The notes under the pieces were generated by a model. It worked only from the letters and a program-made list of their open reading frames with translations, was not told the origin of the DNA and did not search any database. Shown piece after piece: positions 18,524 through 36,134 of a DNA stretch of 64,000 nucleotides. Position 1 is the first letter of the stretch, and each line of letters opens with the position of its first letter. The translations under genes and the position numbers were made by a program. Where the stretch lies: the IMG/VR virus record IMGVR_UViG_3300028584_001242. One strand, written 5' to 3'. The stretch is from a virus. Its lineage: Duplodnaviria; Heunggongvirae; Uroviricota; Caudoviricetes.

Positions 18524-18862
18524 TTAAATTTTATTGACTTGAGCAATGATGTAATCGAGTTCGTCACGAAGTTTTTGAGCAAATTCTGGATCTTGTCGAG
18601 CCATCTCAGGATATTCAGGCAAGGCCATGATTCCGTTGATGTGGTCGATACTTTCACGAAACGTTTTCAACATGTCGAGTTTAGCATTTTTGATGTAAGT
18701 AATCGAGTCACTAATGCCACTAATAGAATCTCGCATGTCAACAAAACTTTCCTGAACCTGATTCAAATCTTGATGAATTTTAGAATCTTCGACAACAGCA
18801 GTCACCTTCTTTTTAAAAAAGATGGTTTTGAAAAAGGCTGTCACTGTCTCTTTATTCATCAT
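18524..18862 (-). CDS. hypothetical protein
   Basis: 112 aa; possible distant paralog of 18142..18492. Confidence 0.75.
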   Translation of the reverse strand: MMNKETVTAFFKTIFFKKKVTAVVEDSKIHQDLNQVQESFVDMRDSISGISDSITYIKNAKLDMLKTFRESIDHINGIMALPEYPEMARQDPEFAQKLRDELDYIIAQVNKI

Positions 18863-34876: not shown

Positions 34877-35485
34877 TTAGAGTTTTTTCGAGCTATCAAT
34901 ATATTTCAAATAAGCGTCCACTTTCTTTTGAACCCTTTCAACAGGCTGGGTAACATCCTTGTGATGTTCATCACGTTGCAAGCAATGCTTAGGGAATGTC
35001 ATCGTCACATTCAAACCAATCGCTTCACCAGCAATGCCACCAGCCCAGTCAGCACCTGTTTGACCACCTGAGATAAGGTTAGTCAGCGGCCAGAACTCAT
35101 GGACTTTGGCAATAACCATATAAACCCACTGATTCAATGACGCCTGAAGCTCATTAACCAATTTCTCATCATCAAGCGTTTTGAATTTATGCTGAGCAGT
35201 CAACTGGTCATTTGTCCAAGCACCAGCCAAGGAATAAATACCATTCCCCGCTACGTTCAAGGTGGATACATTGTGTTTTTTGCAGGCTGCATACAGCATA
35301 CGAGCTGCAACAAGGGTGTCTGTGCTCAAATGGATGGCGACATAACGATCACCAGCTTCACGCTTGGTAAGTTTTTCACCTGCTGAGCTAAAATCTTCTG
35401 CGAAAGCGACCGTAAGATCTGCAGTATGAGCATTGTGTACAGTTCTTGGCTTATACTGTGCAGATTCATGTTCGATAATTTTCAT
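34877..35485 (-). CDS. SLOG / putative molybdenum-carrier-like protein, circularly permuted
   Basis: RT-HN---ADLT and LNVAG in the N-terminal half; ISGGQTGAD glycine loop near the C-terminus. Confidence 0.7.
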   Translation of the reverse strand: MKIIEHESAQYKPRTVHNAHTADLTVAFAEDFSSAGEKLTKREAGDRYVAIHLSTDTLVAARMLYAACKKHNVSTLNVAGNGIYSLAGAWTNDQLTAQHKFKTLDDEKLVNELQASLNQWVYMVIAKVHEFWPLTNLISGGQTGADWAGGIAGEAIGLNVTMTFPKHCLQRDEHHKDVTQPVERVQKKVDAYLKYIDSSKKL

Positions 35486-35573: not shown

Positions 35574-35581
35574 CTTGTGTT

Positions 35582-35748
35582 TGGTAGCTGTTGATGGGAT
35601 CGAACCACCAAGTTAGGACTATTTCATAAGCCTCGGAGTACGTGCATGCTCGTCTGACTTACTATTTCATCTTCACTTCGCCTCCACATCCACGGTCTTT
35701 GATGTTTGCACGTATAACACCGCCAACCGATCCAGTTTAGCAACAGCC
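35582..35748 (-). ncRNA. 167-nt tRNA-like, tmRNA-related RNA (mini-tmRNA-like)
   Basis: GGCTGTT/AACAGCT acceptor plus ACCA; GGTGG-TTCGATC-CCATC T-arm; 13-nt unpaired D-loop analogue with CTGGAT; perfect TACGTGCA/TGCACGTA helix; 3' arm resembles E. coli ssrA as I recall it. Confidence 0.75.
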
Positions 35749-35762
35749 AGAAATCTTAAATT

Positions 35763-35847
35763 TGGTGCCCAAGGTCGGACTCGAACCGACACTCCTTTCG
35801 GAAGCGGATTTTGAATCCGCCGCGTCTACCAATTTCACCACATGGGC
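35763..35847 (-). tRNA. tRNA-Leu (anticodon CAA)
   Basis: Cloverleaf with GCGGA-TTCAAAA-TCCGC anticodon arm, long variable arm and encoded CCA; one U-U mismatch in the acceptor stem. Confidence 0.93.
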
Positions 35848-35870
35848 GTATTTGTTTCTCTACTCTTTAT

Positions 35871-35909
35871 GCGTTGCAGTGTATCAAGATTTAGACAAGA
35901 CTGCAACGC
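35871..35909 (-). promoter_or_regulatory. tRNA operon promoter embedded in a 10-bp inverted repeat
   Basis: TTGCAG-17 nt-TACACT; GCGTTGCAGT-N19-ACTGCAACGC. Confidence 0.75.
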
Positions 35910-35933
35910 TTTTTTCTACATTTTCAATAAAAT

Positions 35934-36134
35934 TTATTCCAACAAATCTTTTGCAGCCGACTTATAGCCACGATTCCATGCATATTGCAGCATAGCGTCC
36001 AAAGATTTCAACTGATCATCAGTCCAGCCTTCGGTAGACGGGTATTTAGATGCCACAGCATCCAGTCGCTTATTCTCTGCGGCGTCTTCCATAATTTCTT
36101 TGATGTCATCATGAATATAACCAGCCATACGCAC
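35934..36134 (-). CDS. small hypothetical protein
   Basis: GAGGTG RBS before MAGY. Confidence 0.65.
   Translation of the reverse strand: MRMAGYIHDDIKEIMEDAAENKRLDAVASKYPSTEGWTDDQLKSLDAMLQYAWNRGYKSAAKDLLE

Follow-up and report, generated by a model that had tools for sequence, protein, structure and literature searches.

A 167-nt RNA gene with tRNA-type ends behind tRNA-Leu(CAA) in a phage-like replicon, and its architectural likeness to the T4 species 1 RNA

The RNA gene and its homologues

It has long been known that the tRNA clusters of phages contain stable RNAs resembling tRNAs. Here we analyze a stretch of 64,000 nucleotides (nt) of the Caudoviricetes record IMGVR_UViG_3300028584_001242 from IMG/VR, referred to as the window, in which a gene for a 167-nt RNA with tRNA-type ends is located on the minus strand at positions 35748-35582 (RNA position p equals 35749 minus the window coordinate). 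The gene follows a tRNA-Leu(CAA) gene (35847-35763, minus strand), found by ARAGORN and scored with 52.7 bits by the Rfam tRNA model, on the same strand and after a spacer of 14 nt, while 5 nt separate the RNA 3' end from an intrinsic terminator-like hairpin with a U run (35576-35555, minus strand). No promoter-like site was found between tRNA-Leu and the 167-nt RNA, the promoter-like site of the next gene is located past the terminator, and the RNA is apparently co-transcribed with tRNA-Leu(CAA). A previous reading, made from the sequence only, had described a separate CCA-ending RNA between tRNA-Leu(CAA) and a terminator, and had taken it for a miniature transfer-messenger RNA (tmRNA). The description is confirmed in the sequence and conserved in the eight copies presented below, and the assignment to tmRNA is rejected.

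Both genes belong to a cassette of 368 nt (35576..35943, minus strand), composed of a promoter-side inverted repeat, tRNA-Leu(CAA) and the 167-nt RNA, which is present or absent as a unit in close relatives of the window. When the window is compared with L036, the 368 nt (35943-35576) are cleanly swapped for 35 nt and homology picks up again at the terminator, hence tRNA-Leu and the RNA form one accessory cassette. L041 lacks the tRNA-Leu and the RNA, L057 lacks much the same stretch, and L043 and L056 have the RNA at the same site as the window cassette. No copy of the RNA was found within 10 kb of the same anchor gene in the close relatives L036-L038, L040-L041, L057 and L050.

Relatives of the RNA were found via the neighbouring gene, which encodes a protein of the circularly permuted YpsA (cpYpsA) family, by pattern scans, and by look-ups of contigs encoding relatives of that gene. 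Eight distinct copies were obtained (window, L044, L043, L056, L030, L001, L047 and L028), where L001 also stands for L016 and L029, all three being one DNA, and L043 is identical to a peat-metagenome contig. All of them are exactly 167 nt long, without a single insertion or deletion, with 86-97% identity to the window copy, and the family model R1 yields 197-205 bits on family members. The upstream neighbour is in every case a tRNA-Leu, either (CAA) or (UAG), at a spacer of 13-14 nt, and a terminator of the same kind is kept 3' of each copy. Public runs holding the sequence derive from food, groundwater, freshwater, peat and wastewater metagenomes.

In 50,697 phage records blastn retrieved no relative of the RNA, its matches being confined to tRNA-Leu and generic T arms. 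Of the 20 loci from a 15-mer scan of IMG/VR, 19 are chance matches on other contigs, and the remaining one is L016, on the same 290-kb contig as L001. A gapped pattern scan recovered three metagenome loci, of which one duplicates the L001 DNA, and, in species genomes, one chance match in a Pseudomonas coding region, and a loop-based pattern gave two chance matches in GC-rich coding DNA. Relatives whose cpYpsA protein has no more than 55% identity reside in bacterial or other contexts, without the RNA.

Fold and covariation

The 43 variable sites of the RNA are unevenly distributed, with one in positions 1-22, two in positions 140-167, and most in interior loops and bulges. The supported fold, composed of tRNA-type ends and two internal arms (I and II), has 96.6% of its cells paired over the eight copies and shows compensatory changes at four pairs (23:53, 33:43, 88:122 and 91:119), a covariation score matched by only 1 of 500 shuffles. 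Thermodynamic folding with only the acceptor stem and the T arm fixed recovers both arms in six of the eight copies.

The tRNA-like top half is the most constant part. The acceptor stem is built from RNA 1-7 (35742..35748) and 157-163, the latter followed by A73 and an encoded CCA (35582..35592 in total); both strands are invariant and 100% paired in the eight copies. Among its 7 base pairs (bp), 1:72 is a G-U and 3:70 (pair 3:161 in RNA numbering) is a C-G in 8/8 copies; for the window copy, the sequence-only reading had already noted a C-G here in place of the alanine determinant G-U. The T arm, RNA 140-156 (35593..35609) with stem 140-144/152-156, is likewise 100% paired, varies only at loop positions 150 and 151, and has the canonical sequence GGUGG / UUCGAUC / CCAUC. 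Between the acceptor stem and the first arm runs a D-loop-like single strand of 12 nt that contains a GG, GCUAAACUGGAU (RNA 8-19, 35730..35741), with one variable site in eight copies and no D stem. The combination of a 7-bp acceptor stem, a canonical T arm and a missing D stem had been correctly recognized from the letters.

Concerning the interior, arm I (RNA 20-56, 35693..35729) contains the helices 20-24/52-56, where pair 23:53 changes in a compensatory way, and 28-33/43-48, where 33:43 does so, and is closed by a 9-nt loop (34-42). The earlier claim that an anticodon arm is absent is correct in part, since this hairpin is supported by covariation. A linker containing GGAGG (RNA 57-70, 35679..35692) is conserved, with 3 variable sites in 14 positions, and in constrained folds its positions 67-69 may pair with RNA 8-10, a contact that is weakly supported. 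Arm II (RNA 71-139, 35610..35678), which adjoins the T arm, comprises helices 71-74/136-139, 78-80/130-132, 87-93/117-123 and 98-100/111-113 and the loop 101-110, with compensatory changes at 88:122 and 91:119 and pair-keeping one-sided changes at 71:139, 80:130, 87:123 and 92:118.

The two arms are probably joined through their end loops. Segment UACGUGCA of loop I (RNA 35-42, 35707..35714), invariant at positions 36-41, is complementary to segment UGCACGUA of loop II (RNA 103-110, 35639..35646), which is invariant at 104-110 while the adjacent 101-103 are hypervariable. This 8-bp helix is 95% paired in the eight copies, with a duplex energy of -11.2 kcal/mol, and where end pairs are missing, as happens in some copies, 7 bp remain. 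The perfect helix had been noted before; the complementarity stands, but since 35-42 and 103-110 are the apical loops of arms I and II, it would be a loop-loop (kissing) interaction, placed in two independently supported loops.

A second stem proposed earlier fares worse. GGUUGG can indeed pair with CUAACU, in the manner of tmRNA helix 2a, but the resulting helix 21-26/133-138 is 85% paired, without any compensatory change. Its pair 23:136 is broken in 4/8 copies, namely all four outside the window's own subgroup, and position 23 covaries with 53, not with 136.

An alternative consensus, obtained with RNAalifold on four sequences, opened the T arm to pair it with the linker. It was rejected because the variants at 59 and 150 break its pairs and the T arm is canonical.

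Taken together, the absence of insertions and deletions in eight copies, the compensatory changes and the invariant loops indicate selection rather than decay. Judged by these sequence comparisons, the locus encodes a structured non-coding RNA with tRNA-type ends, and the gene is real and conserved.

Two further patterns of the interior should be mentioned. The 9-nt direct repeat UGAAAUAGU is found on both strands of arm II (window 35661-35669 and 35618-35626; RNA 80-88 and 123-131), and GGAGG (RNA 64-68) is followed after 10 nt by AUG-AAA-stop, which gave rise to the idea of a mini-ORF (open reading frame) at RNA 64-87. In two copies the motif reads GGAAG, and in the supported fold the AUG is base-paired. 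Both the repeat and the GGAGG/AUG-AAA-stop arrangement may simply mirror the structure.

Relation to tmRNA, to the T4 species 1 RNA and to other explanations

The elements of a tRNA-like domain (TLD) of tmRNA are present in the 167-nt RNA, i.e. an acceptor stem, a T arm, A73, CCA and a GG-bearing D loop without D stem, and the closed-ring topology of the body is also shared with tmRNA. A phage tmRNA without message is not without precedent, as shown by the TLD-only form of mycobacteriophage DS6A (PMC4131195, PMC11915505), with which these likenesses hold as well. The differences are the C-G at 3:70, the unconserved helix 2a and the lack of tmRNA-type pseudoknots.

Model searches gave the same picture. 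Against the 4227 families of Rfam 15, at the gathering score or at an expectation value (E) of up to 10, the RNA is unrecognised beyond weak chance matches, and membership in a tmRNA family was not obtained. The sole match of a tmRNA model is an 8.6-bit beta_tmRNA fragment over the T arm and the terminator, and the mitochondrial tmRNA model, which finds message-less forms, had no match. The copy L001, carried by the 290-kb IMG/VR piece G001, is absent among the sub-threshold matches of the tmRNA models. As a positive control, RF00023 gives 43.2 bits to the 83-nt TLD-only tmRNA of DS6A, and the same model returns nothing on the 167-nt RNA even at E = 10. ARAGORN reports no tmRNA, even at a lowered threshold, and the RNA lacks the UCGAC...GGAC motif that E. 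coli and DS6A have in common. The similarity of the 3' arm to E. coli ssrA, which had been seen before, does exist as letters, but 46/300 shuffles score as well in local alignment.

The putative tag message does not behave as a coding sequence. From RNA 40 a frame of 15 codons encodes ANIKDRGCGGEVKMK followed by two stops, as previously described, and it is open in 8/8 copies, with GCA or GCG as first codon and VKMK or VKME as the end; its stop at RNA 85-87 is kept in seven copies, and L047 has CAG there and UAA as the next codon. But its length does not exceed chance, since a stop-free run as long occurs in 869/2000 shuffles, and another frame is open longer. Variable sites are spread 7/4/6 over codon positions 1/2/3, which gives no coding pattern, and, with 35% of its sites variable vs 26% overall, the frame is among the parts of the RNA that are conserved least. 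Moreover, the conserved pairing between the loops includes the proposed resume codon GCA, and the frame is for the most part base-paired. The proposal of a miniature tmRNA hence fails at 3:70, helix 2a, covariance models, ARAGORN, ssrA likeness and tag frame, and as far as sequence and predicted structure can tell, the 167-nt RNA is not a tmRNA.

The best comparison found had been given by the sequence-only reading as a side remark, namely the stable RNAs of the T4 tRNA cluster. Species 1 RNA (rnaC; NC_000866 70908-71046; L032:1409-1547) and species 2 RNA (rnaD) are located at the end of this cluster. They are expressed RNAs whose function was still listed as unknown in 2022 (PMC9697503), and Rfam holds no family for rnaC or rnaD. 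We folded rnaC and built an alignment (A3) of six homologues that range from T4 to phages of Yersinia, Enterobacter and Pectobacterium. Their common fold, 95% paired and with 22 compensatory pairs, lacks a D arm; its terminal stem is acceptor-like, its arm I is long, and its arm II adjoins a canonical T arm. Both arms end in loops that are complementary to each other, UUGACG / CGUCAA (6 bp), and the two loops change together in Yersinia phage TG1, to UUGAUG / CAUCAA.

The likeness to the 167-nt RNA is extensive. Each is a small RNA encoded in a phage tRNA cluster on the tRNA strand (in T4 as the last gene), and for the window RNA no promoter-like site of its own was found. In each, an acceptor-like terminal stem stands beside a T arm, a D arm is missing, and there are two internal arms, the second abutting the T arm, whose apical loops can pair with each other (6 bp in T4 vs 7-8 bp in the window RNA), and neither belongs to Rfam. 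The likeness of rnaD is looser. In contrast, rnaC has 139 nt vs 167 nt and no encoded CCA, which the window RNA has, and it resides in a T4-type phage, not in a giant phage-like replicon. The model R1 has no match in the T4 region, and R2, built from the six rnaC homologues, does not match the window RNA or six loci carrying it. R2 did give weak matches on true tRNAs and one at window 18554-18667, which was discarded as it folds no better than shuffles and has no Rfam match.

Other known RNAs share fewer features. YrlA-type Y RNAs, bound by Ro60/Rsr, are also non-coding, copy the tRNA elbow (T loop and D-loop GG) and are common in large phages. In YrlA it is the Ro-binding stem that the two RNA ends build, and a loop caps the acceptor-like stem. 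The ends of the window RNA differ from this in forming the acceptor stem itself, with a free ACCA.

The reading we favour, with a probability of about 0.7, is that the gene encodes a stable, structured RNA which is non-coding, has tRNA-type ends, shares its architecture with the T4 species 1 RNA and is not a tmRNA. The tRNA-like top half would let host RNase P, 3' trimming and CCA repair excise the RNA from the tRNA transcript and keep it stable, and the kissing loops would lock arms I and II into a compact, closed and nuclease-resistant ring. This ring, together with the conserved linker, may be the working part that binds a partner, most likely a tRNA-handling protein or the translation machinery; the RNA would decode no codons and carry no tag message.

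Several points weigh against this interpretation. The relation to rnaC is one of architecture, i.e. analogy and not demonstrated descent, because R1 and R2 do not find each other's family. As the family is narrow, with at least 86% identity to the window copy, the covariation corresponds to about five independent events. The loop-loop pairing draws its support from conservation and position, given that the family contains no two-sided change, and some perfect 8-bp complement is present in 11% of shuffles. Contigs from four RNA-labelled runs span the region but extend past the terminator and may be DNA, and the RNA ends are not visible in them. Finally, the cassette is dispensable, since close relatives are without it.

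The 167-nt RNA represents an independent family of the T4 species 1 design, matching no Rfam 15 family, in a very different and very large phage-like replicon, and annotation as tmRNA or mini-tmRNA should be avoided. The two arms with mutually pairing end loops are a testable feature of both families and offer a comparative handle on function. Going further, and with considerable doubt, both families might belong to a common, undescribed class of RNAs, found in T4 and in a giant phage-like element, in which a tRNA handle (acceptor stem, T arm and CCA) carries two arms locked by kissing loops and acts on the translation or tRNA machinery, for example as a chargeable, non-decoding aminoacyl carrier, here possibly of leucine, or as a decoy for a tRNA-binding host factor. 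Were this the case, a single mechanism would underlie the present family and the T4 species 1 RNA, whose function could then be approached by comparison.

The strongest specific alternative, although an unlikely one, is a non-decoding mimic of tRNA-Leu charged by leucyl-tRNA synthetase (LeuRS) through A73 and the D-loop/T-loop elbow, which would either carry leucine to a non-ribosomal reaction or sequester LeuRS or EF-Tu. A tRNA-Leu gene precedes every copy, and the RNA shares with type II tRNAs such as tRNA-Leu A73, the AAA-YU-GG motif of a D loop similar to the one in the adjacent tRNA-Leu, a canonical UUCGA T loop, and a long arm directly before the T arm that resembles a variable arm. E. 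coli LeuRS needs A73 and tertiary pairs of the D loop with the T loop, not the anticodon or the variable arm, and still charges a tRNA-Leu without both arms (PMC9976931); the A73, D-loop and T-loop elements that it uses are carried by the RNA. On the other hand, the D stem is missing, position 8 is G and not U, no place can be assigned to the A15-U48 and A20a elements, and the likeness to the adjacent tRNA-Leu is limited to generic tRNA motifs. The RNA also departs from tRNA-Leu in that it has no 7-nt anticodon loop, the 9-nt loop being engaged in the kissing pair, and in the 69 nt of its "variable arm", and neither ARAGORN at default settings nor the Rfam tRNA model recognises it as a tRNA. 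G001 has no match to tRNA-synt_1, the class I aminoacyl-tRNA synthetase family that covers LeuRS. The position behind tRNA-Leu, A73 and the elbow elements used by LeuRS nevertheless make leucine charging an informative question.

The decoy readings have no specific support. As a decoy, the RNA might draw off a host factor that senses or attacks tRNAs, for instance an anticodon nuclease or some other defence directed at tRNAs, to which it would offer the elbow and the acceptor stem, with its loops hidden in the kissing pair. The tRNA-like top half without a free anticodon-type loop fits this idea, as does the accessory cassette with its presence/absence variation, typical of counter-defence cargo; but no defence or nuclease partner was identified, and the anticodon loop that known anticodon nucleases recognise is missing from this RNA. 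We judge this reading quite improbable. Less probable still is a decoy of the tmRNA type, whose tRNA-like domain would titrate host SmpB and blunt trans-translation. It would find precedents in the TLD-only tmRNA of DS6A, for which such a role was proposed, and in TLD-like tmRNA inhibitors (PMC4131195, PMC11915505), and acceptor stem, T arm and D loop without D stem are as in the TLD. Against it stand the missing G3-U70, the unconserved helix 2a, the absent UCGAC...GGAC motif and the silence of RF00023, which detects DS6A. G001 has no match to SmpB, which has no bearing on the host's own SmpB.

It is highly improbable that we are dealing with an ordinary tRNA, in decay or interrupted by an intron, or with a neutral passenger of the cassette. 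Dispensability of the cassette would suit a passenger, and with introns allowed and the threshold lowered to 80% ARAGORN does propose a tRNA-His(AUG) with a 72-nt intron. This candidate was rejected, since its D stem is 78% and its anticodon stem 70% paired, one pair never being formed, without covariation, and we know of no splicing mechanism for a 72-nt intron in a bacterial or phage tRNA; decay is contradicted by the signs of selection given above. Lastly, a minimal rescue RNA, entering stalled ribosomes to add the peptide ANIKDRGCGGEVKMK, is effectively rejected, for the frame that stays open in all copies is mostly base-paired, of chance length and without coding signature, and alanine determinant and degron-like end are both lacking.

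Cassette surroundings and genomic setting

The promoter end of the cassette carries, immediately upstream of tRNA-Leu, a 10-bp inverted repeat, GCGTTGCAGT / ACTGCAACGC (window 35871-35880 and 35901-35910), that looks like the promoter stem-loops of mobile phage cassettes. Downstream, the gene at window 34877-35485 (minus strand) encodes the circularly permuted protein of the YpsA/SLOG family mentioned above (Pfam PF12694, phrog_10774), with relatives in Vibrio phage ICP1 and many large phages.

The replicon with this RNA is represented by contigs of 1.54, 1.84, 1.85 and 1.92 Mb from independent metagenomes (including L036, L041 and L029), and the stretches inspected are phage-like, with small ORFs on the same strand, most of them without Pfam match. 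G001, held as "provirus", carries 37 tRNAs beside its copy of the RNA; Terminase_6N and Gp23 were also searched for in it, with no match.

A final point concerns the neighbouring tRNAs. The best database match of the window tRNA-Leu, at 86.7%, is in L065 (CAKLQF020000003.1, labelled "Acinetobacter phage MD-2021a"). There the tRNA is flanked by queA and rcsC, which looks like a bacterial chromosome, so the record is possibly mislabelled and gives a weak hint of an Acinetobacter-like host. In L028 (1669-1746), within the same tRNA cluster as the RNA, ARAGORN reports a tRNA without assigned identity, whose "anticodon" has two bases (ga).

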